Shown here: one piece after another, positions 43,403 to 61,607 of the stretch | Numbering within the stretch: the first letter of the stretch is position 1 | Layout: each line of letters begins with the position of its first letter | Origin: Opitutales bacterium | GTDB lineage: Bacteria; Verrucomicrobiota; Verrucomicrobiia; Opitutales; Opitutaceae | DNA: 64,000 nucleotides | NCBI GenBank assembly: GCA_044507675.1 | Contig: JBIQJF010000005.1 | Location: forward strand, 14,708 to 78,707 | Direction of reading: 5' to 3' | Notes under the pieces: generated by a model | The model's database searches: none | What the model was told of the DNA's origin: nothing | Seen by the model: only the letters and a program-made list of their open reading frames with translations | Translations under genes and position numbers: made by a program

Positions 43403-43963
43403 TTAGTTTCCCGGTTGGACAGGTTGTTGGCGCCGGCGCCGAATCTCGTCGGCCATTTCCTGCAAGCGCTGGCTCTGCGCGGCATCCATGCCGGACGATG
43501 AGGAAGGAGCCGATGCTTCCGACTGCGTGGAGCGACCCGCATTTTGACCACCCTCGCCCGCAGACGGCAGCGGTGCGGGCGAAGTGCCATCTGTGATCTG
43601 CCCGGCGGTGTGCGCCGACTGGAGTTTGAGCGCAAGATTGCGACCCTGATAGTCAATGGTCAGAATGTCCTCCTCCTGGTTGTAGCTCCGGACAACGTAA
43701 GGGAGATCCGTCTCCCCGAACGTCACCCACTTCGATTCGCGGGCGGATTGATCATAGATGCTGAAGAAGAACTCCCCCAGTTCGAAAACCACGCTGCGAA
43801 ATTCGAGAGGCCCCCCTTCGCCGGACGCCGTAATCGGGGCGGCGCCGGTGATCGGTAGAAACGGAGAGTCCCGCACCAACGACTCCAACGGGTCATCCGG
43901 CACGGTCACCTGCGCAGCCAAGGTCACGACAGCCACCGGAAAAATGGTCAGAAAAGCACGCAT
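43403..43963 (-). CDS. Exported/membrane-anchored hypothetical protein, positionally GspC-like
   Basis: N-terminal hydrophobic segment, SPF motif, beta-rich core, low-complexity tail; directly upstream of gspG. Confidence 0.55.
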   Translation of the reverse strand: MRAFLTIFPVAVVTLAAQVTVPDDPLESLVRDSPFLPITGAAPITASGEGGPLEFRSVVFELGEFFFSIYDQSARESKWVTFGETDLPYVVRSYNQEEDILTIDYQGRNLALKLQSAHTAGQITDGTSPAPLPSAGEGGQNAGRSTQSEASAPSSSSGMDAAQSQRLQEMADEIRRRRQQPVQPGN

Positions 43964-43974
43964 GCGAGGACCGC

Positions 43975-45189
43975 TCAGCGGAAAAATTCCCACAACCGGA
44001 GATATGCGACCGCCAACCCCGCCTCATCCGAGGCCGAGGTCCGCAGTTCCCGCTGCATGCGCCGCAGGACGCACGGATTCACCAGCATCACCGGCTGCCA
44101 GAGCAACACCGGCAAGGTTCGCAAAAGACGCTCGCGGGGATAACGGAAGGCCGGCGCTCCCCACACGCCCCGCAGTCCGAGACGGCGGACATTCACCAAC
44201 CAGTTTCGCCAGCGGCGATGGCCGGGGCATTTCGGTGCCGGATGCCACGCATAATTCATCGGCGAATTGAAATTCACTCCCAACCGCCGGCTTTCCAGCC
44301 ATAACCACACCCGGCATCCCAACTGTGAAATCGCCGCCCAGTCCCTGTCCAATTCCACGGCAGTCCGCTCGCTCCGGTGAGGCCGCAACTTGAAAACCAC
44401 CCCCGCCGCGTGCTCACCGCGCACGGCCTCGATCCACGACGGGTTTGCCGGCAGGCTCAACGCGGCCAGCCGTCGGCCGCGTTCTTCGCAACTGCCGTGA
44501 TACTGGCCCGCCGCGGTCAACACCGCATCGCCCAGCGCCAACCGGGCCTTGGCGAGATTACGTTCGACGAAATCCGCATCATCGGCCGTGAACGGTTGGT
44601 GCGCGAGACGCTGACGGGCGAGCAACAGTCCGGTGCAGCGATTCATCAATAGCCGCGTCGCCTCCTCGATAGAAATGTCTTCCGGCCGCAGATGATGCAC
44701 ACAATCCGCCAGCAGATCTGCCGGGCCACTCACGCGGTGATGCCCGCGAACGAGGTCGTAGGAAAACATCGTAACGGGCCCGCGTTGCAGATCGGCCAGC
44801 GATATCACTTTGAATTCCACTTCCACTCCCGCCGGCTCCGAAAGTGCATGCGCCAAGCGATTCAGGGCGCGCCGGTGGCGCCATTCGTTGAGCACGGTGC
44901 TCCCGCGCAGCAGGACGTAGTATTCGAGATCGTTGTAAGGTCGGTCGCCGTCCGGCGTGTGAAGCACTCCACCCTCGCCCCGACCATAACCTCCACCCAA
45001 CAGAATACCCTCCAAGCGCTCCTCCGGAATGAGTGATTCCACAGCCGTGCGCACGCGCGCGCATGTCTCACGCAGGTGTCCTTCCAATCCCGCATCGCCG
45101 TTGAGGGTGAACCGTCCGGCCGACGCGACCGCCGTGTTTGGCGCCGTCGTCAGGGATGCGAGAGGTGATATTGTAGCGGCAACCTGCAT
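43975..45189 (-). CDS. Pol-beta superfamily nucleotidyltransferase-like protein
   Basis: LLGGGYGRGEG...YNDLEY fits hG[GS]x9-13Dh[DE]h; helical C-terminal domain. Confidence 0.7.
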   Translation of the reverse strand: MQVAATISPLASLTTAPNTAVASAGRFTLNGDAGLEGHLRETCARVRTAVESLIPEERLEGILLGGGYGRGEGGVLHTPDGDRPYNDLEYYVLLRGSTVLNEWRHRRALNRLAHALSEPAGVEVEFKVISLADLQRGPVTMFSYDLVRGHHRVSGPADLLADCVHHLRPEDISIEEATRLLMNRCTGLLLARQRLAHQPFTADDADFVERNLAKARLALGDAVLTAAGQYHGSCEERGRRLAALSLPANPSWIEAVRGEHAAGVVFKLRPHRSERTAVELDRDWAAISQLGCRVWLWLESRRLGVNFNSPMNYAWHPAPKCPGHRRWRNWLVNVRRLGLRGVWGAPAFRYPRERLLRTLPVLLWQPVMLVNPCVLRRMQRELRTSASDEAGLAVAYLRLWEFFR

Positions 45190-45192
45190 GGC

Positions 45193-46128
45193 TCAGGCCC
45201 CCGGGGAGGTCGGAGGCGACGATGCCCATTGGGTCCACACTGGCGGATGCGCTGCATCGGGTGCGGCACGATAATCCTGCCACCCGGCGCGAAAACCCGC
45301 CAGCCGGGCCTGCCGTTGCACCCAGCGTATGCGCAGCGCATGGGGCCATTCCCCCAACCGGTGATGACGCAGACAAAAACCAAGGTCGCGTCGTGCATCA
45401 TTCAGACTGCCCAGCAGGACCGTGCGCAGGAAATTGAATTTTCCGGGATGACCGTCCCACATGGCCGCCAGGGCGCGACCTTCACCAAAACTCCGTCGCG
45501 CCGCTTGCTGCGGGGCATAGTTGTGGGAATGGGTCACCACCGATTCCGGCACATAGAGCACACGATAACCCTGGGCGCGGGCCCAGCGTGTGTATTCGTC
45601 GTCTTCCGAATACTGCATCGCTTCGTTGAATCCGCGCGGCGTCCACAGGTCCTTGCGAATGCCGCTGCTCACCATGCTGAAGAAATGATCCCAGCGCGCG
45701 GAAGCGCGGCGGGCACCGAAGCACTGTTCGTAGTCGGCGGCATACACCGCCTGGCAATCGGGGCGCGGCACTTGTCGACCGAACACCGCCGCCACTCCGG
45801 GGTCGTGCAAGGCCCTGACCAAAGGAGCAAGCCAGTGCGCGTCCACGGGAGTGGCGTCGGCGTTCAGAAAGACGACAAAGTTGGCGCGAGCCAGACGCAC
45901 GCCCAGGTTGAGAACGCGCGGCGGATGATATTCGTGCGGCTGGATGCTGATGTAATGCTGCGGGGCCGCCGCGCGGATGAGTTCGTCCGAATCATCCGTC
46001 GAACCGGAATCGATGACGATCAACTCATAGTCCTTGAACGTCTGCTGCCGGAGGGCCTGCAGAGTTCCCTTGAGAGCCCAGCCCTCGTTGTAGGAACGCA
46101 TCACGATGCTGACCGCCGGTGAATTCAT
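45193..46128 (-). CDS. GT2 glycosyltransferase (rhamnosyltransferase-like)
   Basis: VSIVMRSYN, IDSGSTD, FLNADA, YSEDDE. Confidence 0.88.
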   Translation of the reverse strand: MNSPAVSIVMRSYNEGWALKGTLQALRQQTFKDYELIVIDSGSTDDSDELIRAAAPQHYISIQPHEYHPPRVLNLGVRLARANFVVFLNADATPVDAHWLAPLVRALHDPGVAAVFGRQVPRPDCQAVYAADYEQCFGARRASARWDHFFSMVSSGIRKDLWTPRGFNEAMQYSEDDEYTRWARAQGYRVLYVPESVVTHSHNYAPQQAARRSFGEGRALAAMWDGHPGKFNFLRTVLLGSLNDARRDLGFCLRHHRLGEWPHALRIRWVQRQARLAGFRAGWQDYRAAPDAAHPPVWTQWASSPPTSPGA

Positions 46129-46271
46129 GGACGGATGCTACGCGCTGCGCTGGCCCGACCCCATGGGGTGATTGCCCCCATCATTTCGGGTCCCGCAACC
46201 CATCTTCGCCTGCGTGATCGCCCGGTAGAGTAACCCAGTTGCCTCTCGCCCACCTTTCACCCGCAACCACC

Positions 46272-47441
46272 ATGTTCCCACGCAGCAGCCCCCGGAGAAT
46301 CACGGTGTCGATCGGATTGCTCGCGCGGAACGAGGAAACCCGCATCGGCCGCACCCTCAACACGCTCTTCAAGCAGACGCTGTTTCGAGAGCTCGACCAA
46401 CGTGGCCAGCGGGCGGAAATCTGGTGTGTCGCCAATGCCTGCACGGACGACACCGCGGCCGTGGCTGCGCGCTGCTTCCATGAGCAACGCTCGCTCCATG
46501 CGCACGCCGACGCGTTTCTCGCCAACAGTGTATCCGTCGCCACCCCGGGCAAAATCAACGCCTGGAATCTGTTCGTGCACGAGATTTCCCATCAGGATTC
46601 CCACTACCTGATCCTGATGGACGCCGACATCCGCCTCGGCGAAGCCACCACGCTGTGGAATCTCGTCCGCGGCCTGCAGGAAAACGAGGAGGCACACGTG
46701 ACCGTGGGCGAACCGGTGAAGGACATCGCGCTCAAACCGGCCGTGAGTCTGCGCGAGCGCCTGTCGTTGGCCACGTCCCGCCTGACTCAAAATTCCGCGG
46801 CGCAACTCACCGGGCAACTCTACTGCATCCGGGCAAAAGTCGCGCGCGCCATCCGATTGCCCCGCGATCTCGCGGCGTGCGAAGACGGCTTCATCAAGAA
46901 TCTGGTGTGCTCGGACATGTTGCGAAAGCCGAGCAATCCCGCGCGCATCCAGCGCGTGGGAGGCGCATCGCATATTTTCGAAGCCTACACGACGGTGCCC
47001 GCAATCCTGCGAAACCAGAAGCGCCAGATGATCGGCCAGGCGTTCGTGCATGTGCTCGTGGACAAATGCCTGCCGGACGCCTGTTGGAAAACCGCCACCA
47101 CTCCGGGTGAATTGGTGACCAAGCTCGACGAGACCAATCCCGCGTGGCTGCGCGAATTGATGGACGAACACGTGCGTGAGGCCGGCCGCTTCTGGCGGCT
47201 GTTTCCGGATGTCGCGAGTTTTCGCCTGAAGCGCTGGCGCAATCTGCCCATCCGTCGCAAGCTCACACATCTGCCGGCCACGCTGCTCGGCACGGGTGTC
47301 ACCCTGCTGGCTGCATGGATGGCCTATCGGTCACTCCGCCGCGGAGCATTGGGTTACTGGCCCCAGAAGCCGCCGAGCGCCGATGATTTTTCCCCACCCG
47401 GTTTCTCCGACGGTCTCGATCTCGCCCCCACCCATAGCTGA
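46272..47441 (+). CDS. GT2-like glycosyltransferase
   Basis: IGLLARNEE, ANACTDDT, GKINAWN, LMDADI (DxD), EDGF. Confidence 0.82.
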   Translation: MFPRSSPRRITVSIGLLARNEETRIGRTLNTLFKQTLFRELDQRGQRAEIWCVANACTDDTAAVAARCFHEQRSLHAHADAFLANSVSVATPGKINAWNLFVHEISHQDSHYLILMDADIRLGEATTLWNLVRGLQENEEAHVTVGEPVKDIALKPAVSLRERLSLATSRLTQNSAAQLTGQLYCIRAKVARAIRLPRDLAACEDGFIKNLVCSDMLRKPSNPARIQRVGGASHIFEAYTTVPAILRNQKRQMIGQAFVHVLVDKCLPDACWKTATTPGELVTKLDETNPAWLRELMDEHVREAGRFWRLFPDVASFRLKRWRNLPIRRKLTHLPATLLGTGVTLLAAWMAYRSLRRGALGYWPQKPPSADDFSPPGFSDGLDLAPTHS

Positions 47442-47456
47442 GTCCACCCGCTTCCC

Positions 47457-48938
47457 ATGAACGAACTGCCCATATTCATCGAATCCAAGGACCTGATCGG
47501 CCTTCTGCTTTTTCCGATAGGCACCGTGATTGTTTCCGCCGCGCTGCTGTTTTGGCCCACATTGCGTTCCGCCGCGTTCTTTCTCATCGTCGGGGGACTG
47601 GCCCTGAGCAACTGGGGCGACCTGAACATCTACAGTGCCTACTGGTATCGTGGCACGACCCGCGGCTTTGAAGTCAGCGTGTTTGATGTGCTGGCACTGG
47701 GACTTTTGTTCAGCTCGTTGCTGGCGCCCCGGCCTGGTGAATTGCGCCGGTTCTGGCCGGCGAGCCTCGGCATGATGCTGGTGTTTCTGCTCTATTGCGT
47801 AGGCAGCACCTTGATGGCCGATCCGGTCATCTTCGGCCTGTTCGAGATCAGCAAGCTGGTGCGCGGAATCGTGTTCTTCCTCGCTGCGGCGATGTTCTTG
47901 CGCAACGAGCGTGATCTTTCGCTCCTGGCCCTCGCCCTGGCCATGGTGGTCATCGTCGAGTCCCTCATGGCCGTCCGGCAACGCGTCTTCATGGGAATGT
48001 ATCGTCCGGCGGGATCACTGGACCATCCGAATAGTCTTTCGATGTTCCTTTGCCTCGTCACGCCCGTGCTGGTCGCCGCGGCCTGCTCCACTCTCGGCCC
48101 GTGGATCCGGCGCTGCTGCTGGCTCGCCGTGATCGCCGCGGCGGGCACGATGGTGCTCACCTTGTCGCGCGCGGGACTGCCCGTGTTCATCGCCGTCACC
48201 GGCGCCGCCCTCGTGTGGTGCGCTTCGTGGCGCCCCACCCCGGGGCGTTTGGTTCTCGGCGTCCTGGCGATGACCGCCCTGGGCTTGTTCGTGGCAAAAT
48301 CCTGGCCGCTGCTAACCGAACGCTTCGGGCAGGCCACGCTGCAGGAGGAATACTTCGACGCACCGGGTGAAACGCGCGGCCACTACTTCCGGCAGGCCGC
48401 AGTCATTCTCGAAGAGCGGCCGTTCGGGGTGGGACTCAACAACTGGTCATACTGGGTCAGTCGCGAATACGGAAAACCTCTCGGCATGAACTACCAGAAC
48501 TATGACGACATTGTTTACGCGCCACCGTCCGACCTGCTCTACATGTATCGCTACGCGGCTCCGGCGCACAACCTGGGCGTTCTGACGGCGGCCGAACTCG
48601 GCTGGGTTGGATTGGCGCTGATGCTGGCGCTGTGGCTGCGATGGATGTTCATGGGAGCGGGCTTTCTTTTTTCCCGCCGACCGGAGGCGATGCACCGCAT
48701 CGGCATCGGCCTCGCTTTCGGCATGCTCGGGGTCTTCCTGCACAGCTTCACGGAGTGGATTTTCCGGCAAACGCAAATCTTCCATATGTTCCACCTCATG
48801 GCGGGCGTGCTCGCCGCCTTGATCGCCCTCAAACACGCCGAGGCTGCGGCCGTGGAAAAATTCGAGGACGAGGCGGAGACGGATTGGGAAATCGACCCGC
48901 TCGCACAACCGGTGCCGATGAGCCCGCTGCAAAACTGA
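47457..48938 (+). CDS. O-antigen ligase/polymerase (WaaL/Wzy_C)-family membrane protein
   Basis: ~12 TM, GSLDHPN, LTLSRAG, large periplasmic loop, AHNLGV..AAELGWVG. Confidence 0.82.
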   Translation: MNELPIFIESKDLIGLLLFPIGTVIVSAALLFWPTLRSAAFFLIVGGLALSNWGDLNIYSAYWYRGTTRGFEVSVFDVLALGLLFSSLLAPRPGELRRFWPASLGMMLVFLLYCVGSTLMADPVIFGLFEISKLVRGIVFFLAAAMFLRNERDLSLLALALAMVVIVESLMAVRQRVFMGMYRPAGSLDHPNSLSMFLCLVTPVLVAAACSTLGPWIRRCCWLAVIAAAGTMVLTLSRAGLPVFIAVTGAALVWCASWRPTPGRLVLGVLAMTALGLFVAKSWPLLTERFGQATLQEEYFDAPGETRGHYFRQAAVILEERPFGVGLNNWSYWVSREYGKPLGMNYQNYDDIVYAPPSDLLYMYRYAAPAHNLGVLTAAELGWVGLALMLALWLRWMFMGAGFLFSRRPEAMHRIGIGLAFGMLGVFLHSFTEWIFRQTQIFHMFHLMAGVLAALIALKHAEAAAVEKFEDEAETDWEIDPLAQPVPMSPLQN

Positions 48939-48939
48939 C

Positions 48940-50196
48940 ATGCGCGCCGCCCATATCCTCCGCAAATACGTGCCCGCCGAATGGGGTGGCACGGAAACCG
49001 CCCTGCAGGGCCTCACCTCCGGTCTCGCGATGCACGGCGTCGACTCAGTCGTTTTTCACCCCACGACGGGTGCGGCTGCTTCGGATCCGCTCGCGCGCGC
49101 CGGTTGCGAGATGCGCCCGTTTCACGCGCACCTTCCGATCCTGGGGCTGCCGCCGGCCGAACGCCAGCGGATGCTCGCGGTCGGGGGCAACCTGGTCTCG
49201 TTCGATCTGCCGCGCATGCTCGCGAAAGAACCCGGTTTAACGATCATCAACAGCCATGTGCTCGGCCGGTTGGGCGGCATCGCCTGCACCATCGCGCATC
49301 GGCGCAATATTCCCTTTGTGGTGACAATCCATGGCGGTGTGCTCGCGGTGCCGGAACCTTTGAAACAGCAAATGAACGGACGTCCGCACCCCACGAGCCT
49401 CGAATGGGGCCAGCTCTTCGGCTGGTGGTGGCGCGCGCGTCACGTCCTCGAAGAAGCGGACGCGATCATCACGTGCAACGTGCGCGAAGCGGAGATGCTG
49501 AGCGCGCGCTATCCCGACCAGTTGATCGTGACGCAACCCCACGGGGTGAACACGGCCCTGTATCAGGTCGATCAGCGTGAAACAGCACTGGCGGCTTTCC
49601 CGACGATCGCAGGACACGACATCCTTCTCTGTGTCGCGCGCGTGGATCCGGTGAAGAACCAAGCCTGGCTGGTGCGCGAAATGCCCGCGATTCTTTCCCG
49701 ATATCCGCAGGCCATGCTGGTGCTCGTGGGTGCGTGCACCAACGCCGACTATGGTTCCGCTCTGCATCGCGAAATCAAGCGGCTCGGATTGGACGGCCGC
49801 GTGCTGTTGACCGGCGGGCTGCCCCCTCGTGATCCACGGATCATCGGCCTGATGCAACTGGCGCGCGCGAACATTCTACCGTCCATTTCCGAAACCTTCG
49901 GCCTCGTGATCCTGGAATCGTGGGCCTCCAACCTGCCCATGCTCGCCAACCGTTCCGCCGGTTCGGTGGAACTGCTGCGCGACGGCGAGAACGGATGCCT
50001 CTTCAACGTGGACCAGCCCGAAGCCTTCCACGCGCAGCTCGACCGCGTGCTCACCGATGCTGTTTTCCGGGGCCATCTCCTCGCCACGGGGCGCGAGTGG
50101 GTTCAGCGATACGACACGGTGGCCATGGCCGGACAGGTGAAGCAACTTTACGACCGGCTCTGTGAAGGCAAAAATGCACTACGTCATTCTGCGTGA
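48940..50196 (+). CDS. GT4 glycosyltransferase
   Basis: WGGTE, PHGV, ARVDPVKNQ, PSISETFGLVILE (Ex7E). Confidence 0.92.
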   Translation: MRAAHILRKYVPAEWGGTETALQGLTSGLAMHGVDSVVFHPTTGAAASDPLARAGCEMRPFHAHLPILGLPPAERQRMLAVGGNLVSFDLPRMLAKEPGLTIINSHVLGRLGGIACTIAHRRNIPFVVTIHGGVLAVPEPLKQQMNGRPHPTSLEWGQLFGWWWRARHVLEEADAIITCNVREAEMLSARYPDQLIVTQPHGVNTALYQVDQRETALAAFPTIAGHDILLCVARVDPVKNQAWLVREMPAILSRYPQAMLVLVGACTNADYGSALHREIKRLGLDGRVLLTGGLPPRDPRIIGLMQLARANILPSISETFGLVILESWASNLPMLANRSAGSVELLRDGENGCLFNVDQPEAFHAQLDRVLTDAVFRGHLLATGREWVQRYDTVAMAGQVKQLYDRLCEGKNALRHSA

Positions 50197-51103
50197 CGAC
50201 GACACGTGCGCCCTGACGCCGGTCGAATGCCTGGAAGCCCTCTACCGGCCGTTCCTCGACCGTGGACTGCCGGTCAATCTCGCCACGATCCCCAATGTCT
50301 GCACGAACGCGCGGCAACCCAACGGACAGCGCGAAGGATTCCTGCAATTCAGCTCGGGCAACTCCACGCCGTTCATCCCGATCGGACAGAACCGGGCTTT
50401 GGTTAATTATCTCCTGAGTGAACCGCTCTATCATGTCCTGCATCACGGCTACGATCACTCGCTCTACGAATTCGAATGTGATGCCGTCCAGGCCGAGCAA
50501 CGTTTATCCGCCGGCGCGCAACGCCTGCACGCCGCAGGCTTTCCCACTCCGCACGCTTTTGTCGCTCCTTACGACCGGTTCTCAGCCGCGAGCCTGAGAG
50601 CCGCGGCGGCCCGCTACCCGGTGATTTCAAGCGGATGGTTTGAATGGCGACGCCTGCCGGCGGCTTGGCGTCCCGCGTATTTGCTCAAAAAATTGCGCCG
50701 CCGGCCGCACTGGAAAATCAACGATACGCTGCTGCTGTCACATCCCGGCTGTCTGCTTTCCCACCACCGGCCGCTGACCGACATGTTGGAGAATATCAAA
50801 CAGGCGGTGGAAGGACAGTCGCTCACCGTGTTGGTCACGCACTGGTGGGAATATTATCGGGACACCCGGCCGGACACGGACTTCATCGCCACCCTCCATC
50901 GGACAGCTGATTATCTTTCCAGCCATCGCGACATTCGCGTCATCTCCTTCGCCGATCTGGCTACCGGCCGGGTAACGCTGCCAGGGAGCGAACCGGCGGT
51001 GGAGGCACCGGCGTCGGAAAGACATCTCGACACCGCTCCACAACCCGCTGGTCAGCCAGCTTGCTGGTCTTTCGAAGATCGATCGACTTCGCCTGCGCCC
51101 TGA
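50174..51103 (+). CDS. DUF2334/polysaccharide deacetylase-like protein
   Basis: ILRDDD, VLHHGYDH, FVAPY, THWWE (NodB-like motifs). Confidence 0.72.
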   Translation: MHYVILRDDDTCALTPVECLEALYRPFLDRGLPVNLATIPNVCTNARQPNGQREGFLQFSSGNSTPFIPIGQNRALVNYLLSEPLYHVLHHGYDHSLYEFECDAVQAEQRLSAGAQRLHAAGFPTPHAFVAPYDRFSAASLRAAAARYPVISSGWFEWRRLPAAWRPAYLLKKLRRRPHWKINDTLLLSHPGCLLSHHRPLTDMLENIKQAVEGQSLTVLVTHWWEYYRDTRPDTDFIATLHRTADYLSSHRDIRVISFADLATGRVTLPGSEPAVEAPASERHLDTAPQPAGQPACWSFEDRSTSPAP

Positions 51104-51998
51104 GGTCCGCCGACAGCGCCGACAGTTCGGACTCGGACCGCGTGGTCAGGAGACAGTTGAGAAACACCAGCGAGTCCCGCAGGTGCGCCTCGGGAGCCGC
51201 GCACGGGATCAGGCCTTCGTCCGTGATCTTTCGAAAACGATAGCCACAGCGATTGAGCAAAGCCACCGTCCTCTCCGGATAAGGCACCGCCGCCTCGGCG
51301 ATGATATCGGGGCGATGGCGGCGAAGGGTTTCCTCCGCTCCTTCAAAAAACGAGGGTTCATGGCCTTCGACATCCACTTTCATCAGGAAGCGATTCGGCA
51401 CCTCGCGCATGCCCGCAACGTAGGCATCGAGGCTTGAGACCGCAACGCTCACCACGCCGGCATGGTTCGAATCGAAACTCCGCTCGAGCGAGGAACTCAT
51501 GTCCGACTGATTCAGGAAAAACGGCATCACGCCCTCGTGATCGGACAGCGCAATCGGTTCCGCGACGATTCGATCGAAGCCGTTGGCCCGGATGTTGGCC
51601 GCAAGGAGAGCATGCAACCGCGGATGCGGCTCGAAAGCCACGACGGAAAGATTCGGACGCGCCACCGCCAGCCTCAACGAGAAGAATCCTATGTTCGCAC
51701 CGGCATCGATGAACAGCGTGGTGGATTCAGTCAGCCGCTCTGTCAGGCATGTGGTGAGCGGCTCGTAGTAATCCAGCCCGCGCCAGAAAAGCTCAAAGCT
51801 GAGATAGTTTTCTCCAAAGCTGGCCAGCTTCAGACGGTGGCCGGTTTGGGACGACTCCACCCCCGGCGTGCAACCGGGAAACCAATCGCGACGCGTGCGC
51901 AATCCCCAGCGGCAGAGGGCGGGACGGAGGGAGGGAAAACGGGTCGCGATTCCGAAAAGGAGGCGACCGAGCTGGCGTTTGGGCAGATAAGGAGGCAC
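50961..51998 (-). CDS. FkbM-family methyltransferase
   Basis: YEP, FIDAGANIGFFS, AFEP, MKVDVEGHE. Confidence 0.9.
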   Translation of the reverse strand: MPPYLPKRQLGRLLFGIATRFPSLRPALCRWGLRTRRDWFPGCTPGVESSQTGHRLKLASFGENYLSFELFWRGLDYYEPLTTCLTERLTESTTLFIDAGANIGFFSLRLAVARPNLSVVAFEPHPRLHALLAANIRANGFDRIVAEPIALSDHEGVMPFFLNQSDMSSSLERSFDSNHAGVVSVAVSSLDAYVAGMREVPNRFLMKVDVEGHEPSFFEGAEETLRRHRPDIIAEAAVPYPERTVALLNRCGYRFRKITDEGLIPCAAPEAHLRDSLVFLNCLLTTRSESELSALSADLRAQAKSIDLRKTSKLADQRVVERCRDVFPTPVPPPPVRSLAALPGR

Positions 51999-52019
51999 GG
52001 CGTGGATGGGGTTGAAAAA

Positions 52020-53216
52020 TCATGCGGAAATCGCCGCTTCACGTGGTAGGCCCGCACGGTTGACCGCATGCGCGGTCAGCGCATCGCGTCTCATTAAACC
52101 GTGGATATGCGGAATGGCGGTGACGGAATCAGGGACATCGGGCACGTTGGTCAGCAACGCGGCGTAACTGTGCGGTGCATCGGGATGATACCCGTGCATC
52201 GCGTGCAACGGGCGCTCGCCCATGTCACTGGGCACGATCAGCACGCCTTCCTCGACGAGGAAGATGAGTTCGCCGAAATACCGGTCGGGAAAAAATGTGC
52301 CGAGCTCGCGCAGCTCTGAATCAGGCAGAATCCGACCGGTCGTCACACCACGAAGACTCGCCGTAATCAGGTCCCTCGCCCGCTCGCTGAAAAACCAGAA
52401 GCGAGCCATCGTCGAATCATAGACCACGGCGTAATCCCGCGACAGGCGCAATGGCAGGGCCGAGATGCGCCGACGCAAATCAAGCAACCGCGTGCAATTC
52501 GCCATGCCGTGATCGCTGAATACATACAATCGCACGTCATGATAGTGCTCACGCGCAGTCGTCAGAAGTCTCGCCAGCCGCTCTTCGTAGTCGTCGAGCT
52601 TGGCCGGAACCTCCGGCGAATCATTACCGACCCGGTGCATCAGTCCGTCGAGGTCAGGCCAGTAGAGGAAGGCGAAATCAATTCGTTCGGCCGCAATATC
52701 CGCCTGCAAGGCCTGCAGGTTGCCCTCTTCCCCGCGCGCAGGTTCGCTGACGTGGTAAGGAATCGCCTCCTCTTCCAGGAAATCGAAGATGTTCGGCCCA
52801 CGGTTCATCCCGCCCGGCTGCAGCGGGCTCTTTTTCTCGGTGAAATCGAACTCCCCGATCTGGCTGAAAGAGAGGTTATATAAATCAAAGTAGCCTTTGA
52901 ACCCCATCGGCCCGCGCAAAAGCTTAGACAGCCAGCGGCGGAATATCCGGCGTGACGTGATCCAACGGGGAAGCCAGCCAAGCGGACGCAAAGCGCGAAA
53001 CGGCGACCGTTCGGGATCGTGGACGAAATAGCACCAGTTGCGATGCTCCTCCGGCCAGGTTCCCGCGAGTATCGAAGGGATACACGCCGAACTGTAACCG
53101 AAGACCGAACGCAGCGGCCGCCGCAACGGGGCGATGCCCCGGGCGAACGACCGGTCGCGGATGATCTCCCAACCACACGCGTCGATGAAAACAAAAAGAG
53201 GCAGCACAGGTTTCAT
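52020..53216 (-). CDS. Alkaline-phosphatase superfamily nucleotide pyrophosphatase/phosphodiesterase (NPP-like)
   Basis: FVFIDACG, GYSSACIPSI (nucleophile region), LDGLMH, SDHG, HAMHGY; ATGA overlap with STAS gene fixes the start. Confidence 0.85.
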   Translation of the reverse strand: MKPVLPLFVFIDACGWEIIRDRSFARGIAPLRRPLRSVFGYSSACIPSILAGTWPEEHRNWCYFVHDPERSPFRALRPLGWLPRWITSRRIFRRWLSKLLRGPMGFKGYFDLYNLSFSQIGEFDFTEKKSPLQPGGMNRGPNIFDFLEEEAIPYHVSEPARGEEGNLQALQADIAAERIDFAFLYWPDLDGLMHRVGNDSPEVPAKLDDYEERLARLLTTAREHYHDVRLYVFSDHGMANCTRLLDLRRRISALPLRLSRDYAVVYDSTMARFWFFSERARDLITASLRGVTTGRILPDSELRELGTFFPDRYFGELIFLVEEGVLIVPSDMGERPLHAMHGYHPDAPHSYAALLTNVPDVPDSVTAIPHIHGLMRRDALTAHAVNRAGLPREAAISA

Positions 53217-53545
53217 AGCAAAATCATGCGGGGTGGACGCGGAGGGGTGATCTCGAACAGACGATGCATGCGCACCAGTTCGCAAAGCTGGCGCAAGTCC
53301 GGCGGCGGATTGGTGATCCGCCACGACAGGGCGCCGTCGCCAGGATCGATTTCCTCGTAAGCCGTCATCAGCGCGTCCACGGTTTCGCAATCGGCGGAAC
53401 GCAGCAACGACAGGTCGAACTCGATGGCGGTGTGCTCCGATTTCAACGCCGTGCGCACATCCCGGACGAGCTCGTCGATGTCGGGTTCCTTCAATTCGCG
53501 CAGGTCGCTGACCCGAAGCGTTTCGCTTTCGGCGGATATCTTCAT
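53213..53545 (-). CDS. STAS-domain protein
   Basis: 110 aa, IEFDLSLLRSADC (DLS..D motif), ITNPPP.LRQL.EL.RM..LF. Confidence 0.7.
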   Translation of the reverse strand: MKISAESETLRVSDLRELKEPDIDELVRDVRTALKSEHTAIEFDLSLLRSADCETVDALMTAYEEIDPGDGALSWRITNPPPDLRQLCELVRMHRLFEITPPRPPRMILL

Positions 53546-54402
53546 ACCGGCGGATGGGCGACCGGCGAATGATCAGCCGGGATGAGCGGCGGATTGGATC
53601 CGGTGAGCGTTTGCGCAATGCGGCGGAACCACTCCGTGGGATCGCGTTGCTCACGAAGCGAGCAAAGCAGAATTTCATCCGGCACGTGCAGGCAGGAACC
53701 GTCGCGCCAGTTGATGAGCGTGCTGCCGAGCGCCAGCGAATCGGCGACCTCGGTGTTTTCCCCCACCATCGTCTCAGGCCCGACTATGCTGCGCACGACT
53801 TCGGCGCCCGGGGAGATCACGGCGCGATCCTCGACCACGGCATGTGGCCCGATTATCGCGCCGGATCCAACCCGCACTTTCTCGCCAATCCAACACGGCC
53901 CGCGCAACACCGCATCAGATGGAATCATGCTCTGCCAACCCACCCGCACACCGGGCGCAATTTCGCGGATGCCAGTGCGGTCGGGCGTAACTGCCCGCTC
54001 GCACCAAGCCTGGACCGCCGCATACCAGTCGGCATAGCTTTCCCCCATCCGTCGACTGGGCAGGCCCGGCAAATGATCCGCCAGCACCACATCGTGGGGC
54101 GCCCGCATCCATCCATCGCCACGACCGTGGCGGCCGCGCGCCTCGGCCACGGTCAGTTCATACATCTCGGTGACGACCCGAATTCGCAAACCCCAGCGCG
54201 ATCCGGAGCCAACCGCTTCGCGCACGGCCCAGGGACGATCGCTGGCGCAGATGGTGACTTCCCTGACGCCGAGCGCCGCGAGATGCACCAGCCAGTAAAC
54301 CACCAGTGATTCACCGAGCAGCGGCACGGCGGCCAAGGGCGCGGGATCGGTGAGATGTTTGAGCCCCGGACGGTAACCGGGGCAGATAAGGATGGATTTC
54401 AT
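53542..54402 (-). CDS. Degenerate NDP-sugar pyrophosphorylase-like protein with LbH repeats (Man-1-P guanylyltransferase-like)
   Basis: LT...PL..VPLLG..LV.Y..L..LGV.EV and GSRWG motifs; hexapeptide C-terminus; GGxGxR signature not intact. Confidence 0.72.
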   Translation of the reverse strand: MKSILICPGYRPGLKHLTDPAPLAAVPLLGESLVVYWLVHLAALGVREVTICASDRPWAVREAVGSGSRWGLRIRVVTEMYELTVAEARGRHGRGDGWMRAPHDVVLADHLPGLPSRRMGESYADWYAAVQAWCERAVTPDRTGIREIAPGVRVGWQSMIPSDAVLRGPCWIGEKVRVGSGAIIGPHAVVEDRAVISPGAEVVRSIVGPETMVGENTEVADSLALGSTLINWRDGSCLHVPDEILLCSLREQRDPTEWFRRIAQTLTGSNPPLIPADHSPVAHPPV

Positions 54403-54408
54403 GATAAG

Positions 54409-55137
54409 TCAGTAGGCGCCCGTGCCGGAAATGACGGCCGGCACCGTCTTGGTGATGATGACAAGATCCTTCCAGAACCCGCGGTTCTCGATGTAGCGGA
54501 CGTCCAGTTCGACTTGCCCGTGAAAATCAATCTGCGCCCGCCCGCTGATCTGCCAGAGGCACGTGATGCCGGGCTGCACCGCCAGACGCCGCCGGTCCGC
54601 CAGTGTGTAGAGCTCCACTTCCCGCGGCACCGGCGGGCGCGGCCCGACGACCGACATGTCCCCGCGGAACACGTTGTAGAACTGCGGCAGCTCATCGAGG
54701 GAGAACTTGCGCAGCAACCGGCCGATCCGGGTGATGCGGGGATCGTCCTTGATCTTGAAGGTGACGCCGGCGCTGTGATGGTTGCGCGCGAGTAGTTCGC
54801 GCAGCCTCTGCTCCGCGTCCGGGCGCATCGAACGGAACTTGAGCATGAGAAACTCCCGCCCGTGACGACCGACGCGCACTTGTCGGAAAAAAACCGGACC
54901 GCGGTCCTCAAGCTTGATGAGCAGCGCCAGCACAAGGAAGAGCGGGCTGAGCATAAGCAGGACCAGCGCGCTGAAGCAGACGTCGAAGGCGCGCTTCCGG
55001 AAATCAGGTGCCGGAATGCTCCATGCCCAGAACCGCCGCAGCAGCGCGAGTCGGAGATTCTGCCACCACCGCAATGGCCCGCGAGCAAGACGGCGCGAAC
55101 GGCGCAAAGCCAGAATGTTGAAACCTGCATTGTTCAT
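54409..55137 (-). CDS. Small monotopic phosphoglycosyl transferase (bacterial sugar transferase, PglC/WbaP catalytic type)
   Basis: KRAFD, GPVFFRQ.RVG, KFRSM, DPRIT..G..LRKFSLDELPQ, GPRP, PGIT.LWQ; start from ATGA overlap with udk. Confidence 0.93.
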   Translation of the reverse strand: MNNAGFNILALRRSRRLARGPLRWWQNLRLALLRRFWAWSIPAPDFRKRAFDVCFSALVLLMLSPLFLVLALLIKLEDRGPVFFRQVRVGRHGREFLMLKFRSMRPDAEQRLRELLARNHHSAGVTFKIKDDPRITRIGRLLRKFSLDELPQFYNVFRGDMSVVGPRPPVPREVELYTLADRRRLAVQPGITCLWQISGRAQIDFHGQVELDVRYIENRGFWKDLVIITKTVPAVISGTGAY

Positions 55138-55841
55138 GACAGCACGCCGGCGGCGCCGGCCATCGAAGGAGTGAAGGAGCGAAAGAGAGTCATGAGCTGT
55201 CCGCCCATCCCGGCGCTCACCGGCGTGAACCGGCTCAACCGTTCCTGCAGTTGGAGTATTTCCATTTCGCGACACGGATGATGCATGAGGAGATCGGCGT
55301 GGGCCGCCTGCGGGCTGACAAACTCGCGATGCATCGGCTCGACGGTCCGGTGGAACTGCTCGACCACCGACGCTTCGGTCCGCCCGCGTTCGGCCGCGTC
55401 GCGAGCGATCCGCCGGCGCAGGCGCTCCTCCTCACCGCAGTGGAGAAAAATGCTGAGTTCGAAGAGCCGGCGAATGGACGGGTGATGCAACAGCCACAAT
55501 CCGTCCACAATCATGACGGACCGGACGGGAAGATATTCTGCCTCCGGCAGCCGGCTGTGCGTTGCGAAATCATACACCGGCAGAAGACAATCCCGGCCCA
55601 TCCGCAGTGTCCGGAGAACGTCGGCAAAGCGCGCCCAGTCGAGCGCATCCGGATGATCGAAATTTACCTGGTGCCGCTCCGCGGCCGGCAAGTGCGACCA
55701 ATCGCGATAGAAATTATCCTGGGACAACCGTCCCGTATGCCGCCCCAACAGGCGATGCAATTGATCTGCCAGCCAGGTCTTGCCCGATCCGCTGCCACCG
55801 GTGACGGCCACCAAACACACTGGAGTTTCGGTCATCATCAT
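55134..55841 (-). CDS. udk: Uridine/cytidine kinase-like P-loop kinase
   Basis: VTGGSGSGKT, QDNFY, NFDHPDA, PVYDF.TH.R, RRIARD..ERGR. Confidence 0.85.
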   Translation of the reverse strand: MMMTETPVCLVAVTGGSGSGKTWLADQLHRLLGRHTGRLSQDNFYRDWSHLPAAERHQVNFDHPDALDWARFADVLRTLRMGRDCLLPVYDFATHSRLPEAEYLPVRSVMIVDGLWLLHHPSIRRLFELSIFLHCGEEERLRRRIARDAAERGRTEASVVEQFHRTVEPMHREFVSPQAAHADLLMHHPCREMEILQLQERLSRFTPVSAGMGGQLMTLFRSFTPSMAGAAGVLS

Positions 55842-57034
55842 CCGGCCAGCTCCGTGCTTCGCGTTGGTTTCACCCGTTCAAAAAGGTCTTCGAGTCCGTC
55901 GATGTAGCGGGGAAAATCGAAGCGCTCTGCGACGAGCGCCCTTCCCTGCTCACCCAACCGACGCGCGTAGTCACGGTCGCGCAGAAGCGCTTCCACGCGT
56001 CCGGCAAATCCCGCGCGATCCATTCTGGGTGCCAGCAGGCCGCTGACTCCGTCTTCGAGCCATTCGCGAACTCCACCCACGTCGAAAGCCACCACCGGAA
56101 GCCCGTGACGCAACGCCTCGAGCCCCGCCAGACCGAACGGTTCCGGCCACACCGAACTGAAAACCGCCATCGTCGCTGTCTGGTAATACGCCGCCACCTC
56201 GTCCGCGGGCACGTAGCCCGTGAATTTTACGCGACGTTCCAAACCCAGTCGCAGCGCGAGCTTTTCGCAATGCGCACGATGGTTGCCGTCGCCCATGATG
56301 ATGCACTCAAACGGCGTGCGCACCAGTGCGAGCGACTCGAGCAGCACATCAACGCCTTTACCGCGCACGATCTGCCCCGCGAAAACGATTCGGTTCAGCG
56401 CCCGCGCGTCCTCCGGAATCGGCGACTCCGGCAGCGCCCGCCCGGGCACGGGTGCATGGATCTCGATTTGTTCGGCGGAGAATCCGTTGCGACGCAGTTC
56501 TTCGAACATGTATTCGCTCGCCACGATCAACCGGGCGAAACGCCGATGCAGCGAGAGCTCCTGCTTTTTCCGCAGGTAATCGTCGAAAGCCAATGCCCAG
56601 CCCGTGGCGCGGCGCTGGACCACGCCGCCGCAGGGAATGAGACAAAGCGGCGAGAATGCGCGCGTGCAGGGCTCGCGACTCCACGAGGAGTAACGGCAGC
56701 CGCGCAGACAAAAGAGATGGTGATCATGCACCATGCGCACGACTGGAACCTCGCCCGCTGCCAAGCCCGCCGTCAGGGCGACTCCGGGAGAATTGTGCAG
56801 AAAGACGACCGATGGATTAAACTCCTGCAATGCCGTCCGGGCCGCATCGGGCTCTTGTGCGGAAAACCGCCGCGCAAATACCGCGCGCCATTGCTCCTCG
56901 CCACGCCCCGTGGACGCGCCATGCAGCAAAGCCAGCTCGTGACCGCGATCACGGAGCGCTGCAGCGACTTCCAACAGGTTGGCTTCGGCTCCCGCCCAAG
57001 CCCCCAAGTATTCATGAACGAACAGAACTTTCAT
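55838..57034 (-). CDS. GT4 glycosyltransferase
   Basis: GAE, HDH, FAGQIVRGKG, SVWPEPFGLAGLE. Confidence 0.92.
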   Translation of the reverse strand: MKVLFVHEYLGAWAGAEANLLEVAAALRDRGHELALLHGASTGRGEEQWRAVFARRFSAQEPDAARTALQEFNPSVVFLHNSPGVALTAGLAAGEVPVVRMVHDHHLFCLRGCRYSSWSREPCTRAFSPLCLIPCGGVVQRRATGWALAFDDYLRKKQELSLHRRFARLIVASEYMFEELRRNGFSAEQIEIHAPVPGRALPESPIPEDARALNRIVFAGQIVRGKGVDVLLESLALVRTPFECIIMGDGNHRAHCEKLALRLGLERRVKFTGYVPADEVAAYYQTATMAVFSSVWPEPFGLAGLEALRHGLPVVAFDVGGVREWLEDGVSGLLAPRMDRAGFAGRVEALLRDRDYARRLGEQGRALVAERFDFPRYIDGLEDLFERVKPTRSTELAG

Positions 57035-57192: not shown

Positions 57193-57846
57193 TTATGCAC
57201 TTCCGACGCGCCGCGACTCGACTCTCACAAAGCCCTTTGAATAGGCGTAGGTGACGAGTTCGGCACTGGTGCGCAGGCCCAGCTTTGCCATGATCCGGCA
57301 ACGATGATTGCGCACGGTGATCTCACACAGGTTGACCGCTGCGGCGATTTCATCGTTGCCCAAGCCCTGACCGAAAAGTCGCAAGAGATCCTGCTCCCTG
57401 CTCGAAAGTATTTTGTCGAACGCCCCCGGATCATTGCGCAAGGCGGCCCATGCCTTCATGGCTCGCGGGGAAAAATACCTCTCACCGGACAACACTGCGT
57501 GAATCGCCGCGGCCAGTTGCCCGGAAGTATGGTCGTTCTTGTCCACGAACCCGTGCAACCGCGAGCCCAGCACGCGATAGACGGTGAACTCATCCACATA
57601 GCCGGAAAGCCCGATGATTTTCGCCTTCGGGCAGGTCGTAAGCAGGTCGTCGATCAGATCGAGCCCGTCGCAATCCGGCAGGGCAAGATCGAGGATCACG
57701 ATACCGGGTTTCTGCCGCCGGCAAAGCACCAGACCAGTGGCGGCGTCGCCCGCTCCGCGAGCCGTCGAACCGGGGATCGCTTCGCAACAAGCCCGAAGCA
57801 GCAAATCCCTCATCAGCGCGTGGTCTTCAATGACGGCAATCTTCAT
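57193..57846 (-). CDS. NarL/LuxR-family response regulator
   Basis: IEDH, ILDLALPD (phospho-Asp), LSSREQ..L.L...G..N.EIA LuxR HTH. Confidence 0.92.
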   Translation of the reverse strand: MKIAVIEDHALMRDLLLRACCEAIPGSTARGAGDAATGLVLCRRQKPGIVILDLALPDCDGLDLIDDLLTTCPKAKIIGLSGYVDEFTVYRVLGSRLHGFVDKNDHTSGQLAAAIHAVLSGERYFSPRAMKAWAALRNDPGAFDKILSSREQDLLRLFGQGLGNDEIAAAVNLCEITVRNHRCRIMAKLGLRTSAELVTYAYSKGFVRVESRRVGSA

Positions 57847-58031
57847 CGGAAAGCCCACAATTCCAGCATTCTCCCGTTCAGCAAGCCCGGAGGTGTGATG
57901 TTTAAACACCAAATGCACCTTTTGACGCGGTGGTATTTCAATCCCTACTTCGTGGGGTGATTTCTCCTCGCAACTCCGTGCCTTTCCCTATGGCGGGAAC
58001 CGGCCAAGAAATTAAGCTCAACCAACCAAAC

Positions 58032-61000: not shown

Positions 61001-61607
61001 TCGTGGTAATCACGGGACCGGAAATCACCGCTTCGGCGGGCTGGGCCTCGGACTCGCCATATCCAGCCAGCTGGTCGAGCTACACGGCGGACGCATCCAT
61101 GCTTCCAGTCCCGGACGGAACCGCGGCTCCACCTTTGTCATCGAACTTCCGCTCGCGATGCCGGAAGGCGCAGAGTCCTCGCCCGCTCCGGTTGATACAT
61201 CACCCGCGGAGCAACCCGAACCGACGCCCCCTGTCCGCAGCATATTATTGGTGGAAGACCATGTTTCCACACGCGAAACCCTGAAAAGGCTCCTCTCCCG
61301 CCGGAATTACGAGGTAGTCGCGGCCGGCACGGTAGCGGATGCCCTGGCGCAGGCTAACGTCCGTTCGTTTGATTTCCTGGTATCGGATGTGGGCCTGCCC
61401 GACGGCGACGGCTACCAATTGATGGCCGCCATCAGGAAAATCCAACCGAACCTTCGCGGGATCGCGCTGAGTGGCTACGGCATGGAGGACGACTTGCAGC
61501 GATCCCACAACGGCGGGTTCGTCAGTCACCTCGTGAAACCGGTGAGCATCAGCCTGCTGGAAAATGCGCTGGCCCAAGCCGCACCCGTCGCCGCGACTTC
61601 CGCCTGA
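58032..61607 (+). CDS. Hybrid sensor histidine kinase: 5 PAS + GAF + HisKA + HATPase + REC
   Basis: Repeated PAS/PAC motifs (DIS.RK, DIT.RK, DVT.RK), SHELRTPL, NAVKFT, GLGLGL, C-terminal VEDH..SDVGLPD. Confidence 0.93.
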   Translation: MSLPPTPPADAGRALPKRSLDLAMTGGKVGVWEWNIATNHLQWSEPVYAIHGVEPDKFEVTFESFFRLIHPEDADRVHRAIDEALKSDAPCEIEFRVIRPDGQVIWVFTNATVERHRGRPIRMAGAMVDVSSRHQVNDTSLWLAAIVDSSDDAIISKNLDSIITSWNAAAQRLFGYSANETIGRSVTMLMPDDRKNEEVALLERIRRSERVEHFETVRQRRDGSLFEVSLTVSPVKDAEGRIVGATKIVRDISDRKKQQGALRMSEERFRLLACNAPVGIFLSNERGGCMFVNARWSEMAGLPPEQAEGSGWIAAVHPEDRERVAAGWQQAVERAHPSVSEFRFLRPDGSVVWVHGSAVRFDNGGTFHGYLGSCLDITQRKQAELQTKFLHDLGDRLAVLGDPARIRSAAQVALGEHLGANRCFFVEINTEETGGSISDDWHRPGLDSLAGRHLLSQYGSRDLRDRIARQQFSVFDVWLHHSTRTQRERFSSLDIRSLATAAFWQDGRWVYSLVVTSAEPRHWTQAEMELVEDVAARVGPIIEQARASQALRQSERLYRAIGESINYGIWVCGPDGHNLYASDSFLKLVGLTQQQCSEFGWAGILHPDEVAATTAAWRECLRTGSFWEREHSVKGADGRWHPILARGVPVRDENGRIQHWVGINLDISAIKEVQNAARRGENQLRLVTDHASVFLAHCDRQHRFKFVNQPYAERHMLTREEIIGHHVSELTGSEAYAKFKHRMDDCLAGRRIEFEEEIPYQTIGQRWVHVIYEPERAPDGEVVGLVAAIVDVTERKRVEFELSRARDKALAASRAKDEFLASLSHELRTPLNPVLLLASDAAHNPALTPEVRDSFEIIRRNISHEARLIDDLLDHTRIVRGKLQLDKTRVDLHAVLQEAVESIQPDIERRHLNLQLFLGARQTAVIGDVVRLQQIFVNVLQNAVKFTQEGGQITVISRVAAETDRLIVEIRDNGMGMAPTEIEQVFTAFTRGNHGTGNHRFGGLGLGLAISSQLVELHGGRIHASSPGRNRGSTFVIELPLAMPEGAESSPAPVDTSPAEQPEPTPPVRSILLVEDHVSTRETLKRLLSRRNYEVVAAGTVADALAQANVRSFDFLVSDVGLPDGDGYQLMAAIRKIQPNLRGIALSGYGMEDDLQRSHNGGFVSHLVKPVSISLLENALAQAAPVAATSA

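Follow-up and report, generated by a model that had tools for sequence, protein, structure and literature searches.

An accessory polysaccharide locus of Verrucomicrobiota with a co-inherited nucleotidyltransferase and NPP-family phosphodiesterase

A 64,000-nucleotide stretch of the genome of an Opitutales bacterium (GenBank assembly GCA_044507675.1, contig JBIQJF010000005.1, positions 14,708 to 78,707 of the forward strand), referred to here as the window, carries a 13-gene glycan locus in which a Pol-beta-fold nucleotidyltransferase (NTase), an NPP-family phosphodiesterase and a uridine kinase (udk) stand among genes of polysaccharide assembly. The host is placed by its named homologues as a Lacunisphaera/Oleiharenicola-like member of the Opitutaceae (Verrucomicrobiota). 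Genes were called from an open reading frame (ORF) listing together with Pfam and NCBIfam profile searches of the window proteins, and all coordinates are window positions unless a related locus is named. An earlier note on this DNA had described five odd proteins beside ordinary glycan genes, namely these three, a degenerate pyrophosphorylase and a STAS protein, and all 13 genes are located where it placed them. The window holds one copy of an accessory polysaccharide locus that is found across Verrucomicrobiota.

Six of the genes form a tight operon on the minus strand in the order GT4b-udk-PGT-LbH-STAS-NPP. The first encodes a GT4 glycosyltransferase (GT4b, 55838-57034), which matches PF00534 (2.1e-35) and PF13439 and is syntenic in relatives. 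It is followed by udk (55134-55841), a small monotopic, initiating phosphoglycosyl transferase (PGT) of 242 aa (54409-55137), a pseudo-pyrophosphorylase with a left-handed beta-helix (LbH, 53542-54402), a single-domain STAS-like protein of 110 aa (53213-53545) and the 398-aa NPP (52020-53216). The tight linkage claimed earlier can be read directly in the sequence: ATGA start/stop overlaps join GT4b to udk at 55838 and recur at 55134, 53542 and 53213, the last of these between STAS and NPP, and the PGT and LbH genes are 6 bp apart. Longest-ORF calls overextend the NPP start from 53216 to 53678 and miss the PGT frame, which is that of 54409-55275 and not the Ser/Arg-rich frame of 54399-55130. 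The NTase gene (43975-45189, 404 aa) lies further along the same strand, 3 bp from the GT2 glycosyltransferase gene directly upstream of it (GT2a, 45193-46128, minus strand; PF00535 2.6e-20). GC content is even across the window, and a promoter/terminator scan of it gave counts no higher than in shuffled sequence.

The NTase is the founding member of an unnamed family, which comprises 1,515 representatives of 50%-identity clusters at E <= 1e-3 and is named nowhere. The protein has no match in Pfam (E <= 10), NCBIfam or PADLOC, and its profile finds nothing among PDB sequences at E <= 1. It belongs to the Pol-beta nucleotidyltransferase superfamily by its G-G/S loop, metal motif and third carboxylate (GGGYGRGEGG...NDLE...VEVEF), with the corresponding strands present in an AlphaFold2 (AF2) model. 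Residues G66-G74, N86-D87-x-E89 and E125, the Pol-beta NTase signature, are invariant in 48 sequences of the family. The model has a mean predicted local distance difference test (pLDDT) score of 90.4 and includes a large helical C-domain. All significant Foldseek matches to it are NTases, led by ANT(4')/KNTase and AAD(9) at E ~4e-4, enzymes which put a nucleoside monophosphate (NMP) on a sugar or cyclitol hydroxyl. The NTase is not itself a member of the ANT(4')/KNTase family, as there is no sequence-level homology and no close superposition, only a shared architecture. The structure comparison suggested in the earlier note led to the kanamycin NTase group and not to the CD-NTases: no cGAS/DncV-type enzyme is among the top 50 Foldseek matches, PADLOC gives no match and the gene neighbours are glycan enzymes. 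A reading as a defence system (CBASS or MNT-HEPN) was rejected on the lack of PADLOC matches and a context that is always glycan assembly.

Related loci were collected from other species with the NTase as bait and 10-kb flanks, giving 80 loci. GT2a is matched directly upstream of the NTase in 73 of these, and the two functions are fused in P0107, P0135 and L051:7797-10019. A GT4-NTase fusion (P0275) and an LbH-NTase fusion (L016:6201-8519) also exist. GT2a is a near-obligate upstream partner of the NTase, and the fusions tie the latter to glycan assembly. Further matches were found for GT4a (51/80), Wzy_C (45/80), DUF2334 (33/80), NPP (32/80), GT2b (31/80), STAS (21/80) and LbH (18/80); the lowest counts, including those of PGT (15/80) and udk (6/80), are underestimates, since these genes lie ~9-10 kb off, at the edge of the flanks. 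Within the genus, 4 of 24 other genomes have the NTase, and all four are syntenic over the whole locus from GT4b to the NTase. This synteny and the blocks that recur among the 80 loci, such as DUF2334-GT4a-WzyC-GT2b, take the gene arrangement beyond chance. Two architectures are recurrent: the Opitutaceae type of the window, and one with PGT, an LbH-dead PGT fusion, STAS, kinase/phosphatase, NPP, GT4a, Wzx, GT4, GT2a and NTase. In a third arrangement, from another class (L112), Wza and a Wzz-like protein join the set, and synteny holds across classes. Most carrier genomes are metagenome-assembled genomes (MAGs). NTase loci ~50% identical to the query also occur in MAGs labelled Limnocylindrales, Haliangiales, Acidoferrum, Bifidobacteriaceae and Methylomirabilota (L047, L092, L099, L101, L107), and verrucomicrobial contigs placed in the wrong bin are a likelier source of these than transfer. 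In one relative the gene immediately after the GT2-NTase fusion encodes a 4'-phosphopantetheinyl transferase (L051:10025-10774).

Co-occurrence of the NTase and NPP was assessed in 201 Verrucomicrobiota genomes, all >= 90% complete; as the genomes share ancestry, the counts do not represent independent events. The NTase is present in 44 genomes and the NPP in 45, with 43 genomes carrying both. The sole genome with an NTase only has this gene near a contig end, and the two NPP-only matches are weak (E ~1e-7). In families where the genes are patchy the NTase and NPP carriers are identical (f1, 1/15; f18, 2/17; f37, 6/17), and such repeated agreement argues for functional dependence. The two genes are adjacent in many lineages and up to 140 kb apart in some, hence their coupling is not mere linkage. 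The co-occurrence that the earlier note had asked about is thus strongly positive. Together with the synteny and the recurring blocks, it bears out the view of the five odd genes as one conserved functional unit. Literature searches turned up no described pathway that contains the NTase, NPP and udk parts.

The NPP is a clear family member by PF01663, scoring 64.7 bits where the cut-off is 23. Its metal ligands are all kept, as is a Ser in the place of the nucleophile, with D12, S42/S43, D190, H194, D235, H236 and H341 invariant, and mean column identity is 69%. Its AF2 model (pLDDT 80.5) has a poorly modelled insert of ~65 residues (63-127), and Foldseek aligns it to ENPP6, Xac NPP and ENPP5 at template modelling (TM) scores of 0.61-0.66. 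No signal peptide, membrane anchor or hydrophobic segment is found in the protein, which starts directly with the strand beta-1 that bears Asp12. It is accordingly predicted to be cytoplasmic, which is unusual for a family whose typical members are secreted or ecto-enzymes.

The udk product has a P-loop (GGSGSGKT) and matches PF00485 (1.2e-31). It passes NF004018 with 184 bits against a cut-off of 180 and does not reach TIGR00235 (168.7 against 220.3), so that its membership in the uridine kinases is borderline but positive. A housekeeping role was rejected for Opitutaceae: the gene is the sole tblastn match in its genome, and none was found in 15 other Opitutaceae. Instead, udk has been recruited repeatedly, standing inside the locus in at least five gene orders which include GT4b-udk-PGT in the window, LbH-udk-NTase (G204), udk-GT4-NPP-NTase (G050) and udk-Wzy_C (G134). 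It adjoins the NTase or NPP in G204 and G050.

The remaining glycan genes are those expected of a polysaccharide pathway. On the plus strand lie GT2b (46239-47441, GT2-like, PF00535 5.3e-6), a polytopic Wzy_C-family membrane protein with multiple hydrophobic segments (47457-48938, PF04932 2.4e-12), which is the probable Wzy polymerase, GT4a (48940-50196, PF13692 1.6e-25 and PF00534) and a DUF2334 protein (50162-51103, PF10096 9.3e-8). The last had been labelled a deacetylase; the gene is present, but its match is to DUF2334 only. An FkbM-family methyltransferase (50961-51998, minus strand, PF05050 3.1e-16) is a variable accessory gene, matched in only 8/80 related loci. The convergent FkbM and DUF2334 genes overlap by 143 bp at their 3' ends (50961-51103), and relatives show a comparable overlap (L008 3670-3800, for instance).

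The locus of the window has a PGT, five glycosyltransferases and Wzy_C. As had been remarked before, no Wzx, Wza or Wzc gene is present in it; candidates lie elsewhere in the genome. Relatives carry Wzx inside the locus, and in L112 Wza and a Wzz-like gene stand inside it beside Wzy_C. The presence of these genes in relatives suggests an exported polysaccharide of the Wzx/Wzy type, and their absence from the window is a local feature. The best reading is a Wzy-dependent, exopolysaccharide-type pathway starting at the PGT.

The PGT, LbH and STAS genes appear to make up a separate control module. The PGT is a monotopic enzyme (PF02397 7.4e-69, 231 bits; TIGR03025 296.7 bits) with one hydrophobic re-entrant segment at residues 49-78. 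The protein encoded next combines a truncated NTP-transferase-like N-domain with an LbH domain (Hexapep 1.7e-10). It is not recognisable as a sugar-1-phosphate nucleotidylyltransferase by PF00483, where its E value of 0.019 is below cut-off, although PDB profile matches align it with LbH-type sugar-1-phosphate nucleotidylyltransferases, eIF2B epsilon/gamma and GMPPA/B. Its N-domain is shortened to ~145 residues from the ~230 of the full PF00483 domain with the mid-domain missing, the GxGTR signature reads C-P-G-Y-R-P-G, and PKP reads APL, replacing the Lys. By these motifs the protein is a pseudo-enzyme, in agreement with the earlier description of a degenerate pyrophosphorylase. A role as an acetyltransferase of the PglD/NeuD/LpxA type was rejected, as Hexapep is present but the LbH region of 14 orthologues has no invariant His. 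Longer orthologues carry a C-terminal membrane segment and the second half of Bac_transf in which the catalytic D-E dyad reads R-W. These dead-PGT fusions suggest that the LbH protein physically associates with the real PGT encoded just upstream. A PGT piece that is catalytically dead serves as a module a second time at L112:5144-7522 (G204), where GT4, this Bac_transf remnant and WecG/TagA (GT26) form one triple fusion.

The STAS label of the window protein needs its orthologues. Alone it scores 20-24 bits, below the Pfam cut-offs (STAS_2 4.7e-5, STAS 6e-4), whereas the orthologues reach 56-72 bits. In at least a dozen related loci the gene after STAS encodes HATPase_c_2-(GAF)-SpoIIE, a lone RsbW-type kinase or REC-PP2C-RsbW, and together with STAS these genes of relatives are a classic partner-switching set. 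The culturable carrier Opitutus sp. ER46 has NTase, NPP, STAS and kinase/phosphatase genes. Neither an RsbW-type kinase nor a PP2C phosphatase is found in the window locus. Where a kinase is in the locus, the Ser of D-S-x-G-L-G is kept (9/9); where it is not, the 13 STAS proteins have six Cys (including the window), three Gly, one Thr and three Ser. When the orthologues are aligned to SpoIIAA of B. subtilis, the Cys of the window protein, Cys53, falls at the position of Ser58. This pattern suggests that the clade of the window lost the kinase/phosphatase and the phosphosite together, and the protein would be STAS by descent with its phosphosite lost.

A separate, complete partner-switching cluster with two STAS genes, an RsbW-like kinase and a PP2C phosphatase lies ~52 kb past the window end (G000:C17:130058-131836). 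Its RsbW/PP2C pair (C17:130873-131836), the only such pair on the contig and 60 kb away, was considered as the missing partner and rejected, as it has two STAS genes of its own, which leaves no basis for linking it to the STAS of the locus. In L112:1293-2914 the REC-PP2C-RsbW protein is split into two overlapping ORFs (1293-2048 and 2045-2914) which divide the SpoIIE domain; the cause may be a sequencing error, a frameshift or a genuine division of the gene.

The best explanation of the locus as a whole joins a Wzy-type pathway, a control module at the PGT and a nucleotide module of NTase, NPP and udk, and it is put forward tentatively, at a little under even probability. The PGT, the dead pyrophosphorylase-LbH protein and STAS would be the remains of a circuit that controls the first committed step by partner switching, as do SypA/SypE of Vibrio fischeri and All4160/HenR of Anabaena. 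There, an RsbW-type kinase and a PP2C phosphatase set the phosphorylation of a STAS domain, which switches the PGT on or off post-translationally. Judging by the fusions of dead PGT and dead pyrophosphorylase, the putative target of STAS is the PGT itself. Docking on the PGT is the most likely role of the pseudo-pyrophosphorylase, which may also sense a nucleotide-sugar, and the STAS/LbH pair may modulate PGT activity. As the kinase/phosphatase gene has been lost and the phospho-Ser is now Cys, the switch of the window is probably locked in the non-phosphorylated state.

The nucleotide module probably adds a nucleotide-derived phosphodiester to the glycan and trims it, with every chemical step one that we infer. 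The KNTase-like NTase would act directly after GT2a on the cytoplasmic lipid-linked repeat unit and transfer to a sugar hydroxyl an NMP that is probably UMP or CMP. The phosphodiester would next be cut by the cytoplasmic NPP, which would either leave a phosphate-type substituent and free a nucleoside or remove the NMP. In the former case udk would recover the pyrimidine nucleoside in a lineage otherwise without this kinase. In its most specific form, the module would be a previously unknown route that nucleotidylates and then trims to install a phosphate or phosphodiester on the lipid-linked unit: UTP or CTP is spent, cleavage by the NPP falls on the nucleoside side so that the phosphate stays with the glycan, and the kinase of the locus salvages the uridine or cytidine set free. 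This form is considered unlikely. The earlier note had offered a phosphodiester-linked or nucleotidyl substituent as one of two ideas, and the GT2 and GT4 fusions and the aminoglycoside O-nucleotidyltransferase fold neighbours make it the better fit.

Several points weigh against this explanation. Characterised NPPs usually set the alcohol free and retain the NMP, which would give UMP and not uridine and make udk unnecessary. Only 14 of the 44 NTase-positive genomes have udk, which suggests a helper and not a core part. The NTase and NPP genes are far apart in several genomes (140 kb in Opitutus sp. ER46). The superposition of the NTase on ANT is loose (TM 0.30/0.43, root-mean-square deviation 8.5 Å), and the modelled fold match would indicate only a shared two-domain NTase architecture. 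On the control side, the STAS protein of the window falls below the Pfam thresholds and could be a decaying, functionless relic.

The alternatives differ mainly in what the NTase is thought to act on. It could make a small nucleotide messenger that the NPP degrades, with the dead pyrophosphorylase or STAS as a receptor gating the PGT, which was the second idea of the earlier note. The pair does co-occur like a cyclase and phosphodiesterase, G232 has a fusion of LbH to the NTase, the fold of the LbH protein is still of a nucleotide-binding type although its catalytic motifs are gone, and the oligonucleotide synthase HalB is among the weaker fold matches of the NTase (rank 11). However, the top fold matches are antibiotic O-nucleotidyltransferases and not cGAS/DncV-type enzymes, no PADLOC or CBASS-type match was obtained, and the NTase is tied most tightly to GT2a (73/80 loci and the fusions) rather than to LbH or STAS. 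Clear LbH orthologues are also much rarer than the NTase/NPP pair, and in relatives STAS is governed by the neighbouring RsbW-type kinase and PP2C phosphatase, not by a nucleotide. A nucleotide signal is hence improbable, and the idea is not supported as written; what survives of it is a regulatory role of STAS and the degenerate pyrophosphorylase at the PGT step, which the dead-PGT fusions and published STAS-PGT precedents support. GlnE and GlnD act as nucleotidyl writer and eraser on glutamine synthetase and PII, and the NTase could likewise AMPylate or UMPylate a protein of glycan assembly, for instance GT2a or the PGT, with the mark being taken off by the NPP. The resemblance of the two to a writer/eraser pair, the large helical C-domain of the NTase and its varied fusion partners (GT2, GT4, LbH), as of a regulator riding on its targets, would fit. 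This too is rather unlikely, given fold neighbours which act on small-molecule sugars, no conserved acceptor motif identified, and the linkage to udk, which is left unexplained since de-nucleotidylation would yield an NMP.

Donor synthesis is a further reading, in which udk or a udk-like kinase, NTase and NPP make or convert an unusual activated donor for GT2a and the NTase replaces the dead pyrophosphorylase. The canonical pyrophosphorylase of the operon is inactive and GT2a is coupled to the NTase, and a kinase followed by a nucleotidyltransferase is the logic of the LicA/LicC and O-methyl phosphoramidate (MeOPN) pathways. Set against this, udk passes the uridine-kinase equivalog cut-off and so probably acts on uridine or cytidine rather than a sugar or alcohol, it is missing from two thirds of the carrier genomes, and no Pol-beta NTase is known to serve as a sugar-1-phosphate activator; the reading is accordingly doubtful, with a low probability. 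Least probable by far is that the three genes are unrelated passengers: udk would boost pyrimidine for UDP-sugars, the NTase would be a stray gene of the MNT or resistance type, and the NPP would do housekeeping as a pyrophosphatase. In its favour, not every copy of the locus has udk, and one report (PMC5863508) describes pyrimidine supply as limiting capsule synthesis in other bacteria. The 43 genomes common to the NTase (44) and NPP (45) sets, synteny across classes, three kinds of NTase fusion and the high conservation of both families all speak against it, and by the co-occurrence and fusion data it is strongly disfavoured.

Genes on both sides of the locus were also considered. Divergent from the operon, its flank (57193-61607) encodes a LuxR-type response regulator and a multi-PAS/GAF hybrid histidine kinase of 1,225 aa. 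Both are kept beside the locus in the close relative L011, a 25-residue match to the LuxR regulator lies at the end of L010, and no clear orthologue of the PAS kinase was found in congeners without the locus; the two may be local transcriptional regulators. At the other end, orf196 (43403-43993) encodes a secreted or anchored low-complexity protein of 196 aa with no family match. Its start is more likely the ATG 30 nt downstream of the listed GTG, and it is probably the first gene of a pseudopilin (gspG-...) operon. Glycosylation of the pseudopilin by the locus was rejected, as only 4/80 loci have gspG within 10 kb of the NTase, and two congeners that lack the glycan locus still have orf196 upstream of gspG. 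This persistence makes the adjacency of the glycan and type II secretion genes look incidental.

Verrucomicrobiota are abundant in soil, freshwater and guts, and their surface polysaccharides are almost uncharacterised. This locus type is present in about one fifth of the sampled genomes. The NTase family (~1,500 clusters at 50% identity) has no name, Pfam model or solved structure and is locked to a rare cytoplasmic NPP and a GT2. The chemistry of these proteins could reveal a new glycan decoration. The locus also forms a natural series, from complete partner-switch control of the PGT through kinase-only forms to a locked STAS, which bears on the question of what STAS proteins such as SypA target in polysaccharide synthesis.

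The control module has published precedents. In Anabaena, All4160 (STAS-Bac_transf) works with the phosphatase HenR and the kinase Alr3423; phosphorylation turns polysaccharide synthesis off, and a non-phosphorylatable STAS is constitutively active. All4160/HenR/Alr3423 and XssP of Synechocystis share with the window a STAS domain coupled to a Bac_transf PGT. They differ in that the STAS and PGT of the window are separate genes with LbH between them, the STAS is non-phosphorylatable and the host belongs to Verrucomicrobiota, not cyanobacteria. The syp locus of Vibrio fischeri, also of the Wzx/Wzy type, has post-transcriptional control of synthesis by SypA (STAS) and SypE (RsbW-kinase/REC/PP2C). 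Relatives of the window locus resemble it in their single-domain STAS and fused kinase/phosphatase (HATPase_c_2-(GAF)-SpoIIE or REC-PP2C-RsbW), whereas the window is without kinase/phosphatase and phospho-Ser and has the pseudo-pyrophosphorylase/LbH between PGT and STAS. The syp locus is not known to have an NTase/NPP/udk module. A further precedent for small-protein control of a PGT is the action of Myxococcus EpsW on EpsZ. The LbH protein recalls eIF2B epsilon/gamma, GMPPA and GlgD, which also join an NTP-transferase-like domain that has lost its catalytic signature to an LbH and act as regulatory or sensing subunits. It stands apart from them in its truncated N-domain, the dead-PGT fusion in relatives and the lack of an active paralogue in the locus.

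The nucleotide module has known likenesses too. ANT(4')/KNTase (1KNY, 6UN8) and AAD(9) (6XZ0) have the same order of a Pol-beta NTase domain and a helical domain, with the G-G/S loop and acidic triad. The window NTase has no sequence similarity to them, a helical domain about twice as large, and a context of glycan assembly instead of resistance. The NPP shares PF01663, fold, metal ligands and Ser nucleophile position with Xanthomonas NPP (2GSN/7N1S), ENPP5 and ENPP6, but is unexported, carries the ~65-residue insert and is obligately partnered with the NTase. LicA/LicC/LicD phosphocholine decoration and Campylobacter MeOPN likewise place a kinase, nucleotidyl transfer and an NTase-fold or hydrolase step in a glycan locus. 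This is an analogy only: no homology was detected between these systems and the window module, whose kinase is a uridine kinase and which involves an NPP. Were the nucleotidylate-then-trim route true, it would parallel in bacteria the logic of the two-step tagging by which mannose-6-phosphate is first covered and then uncovered.

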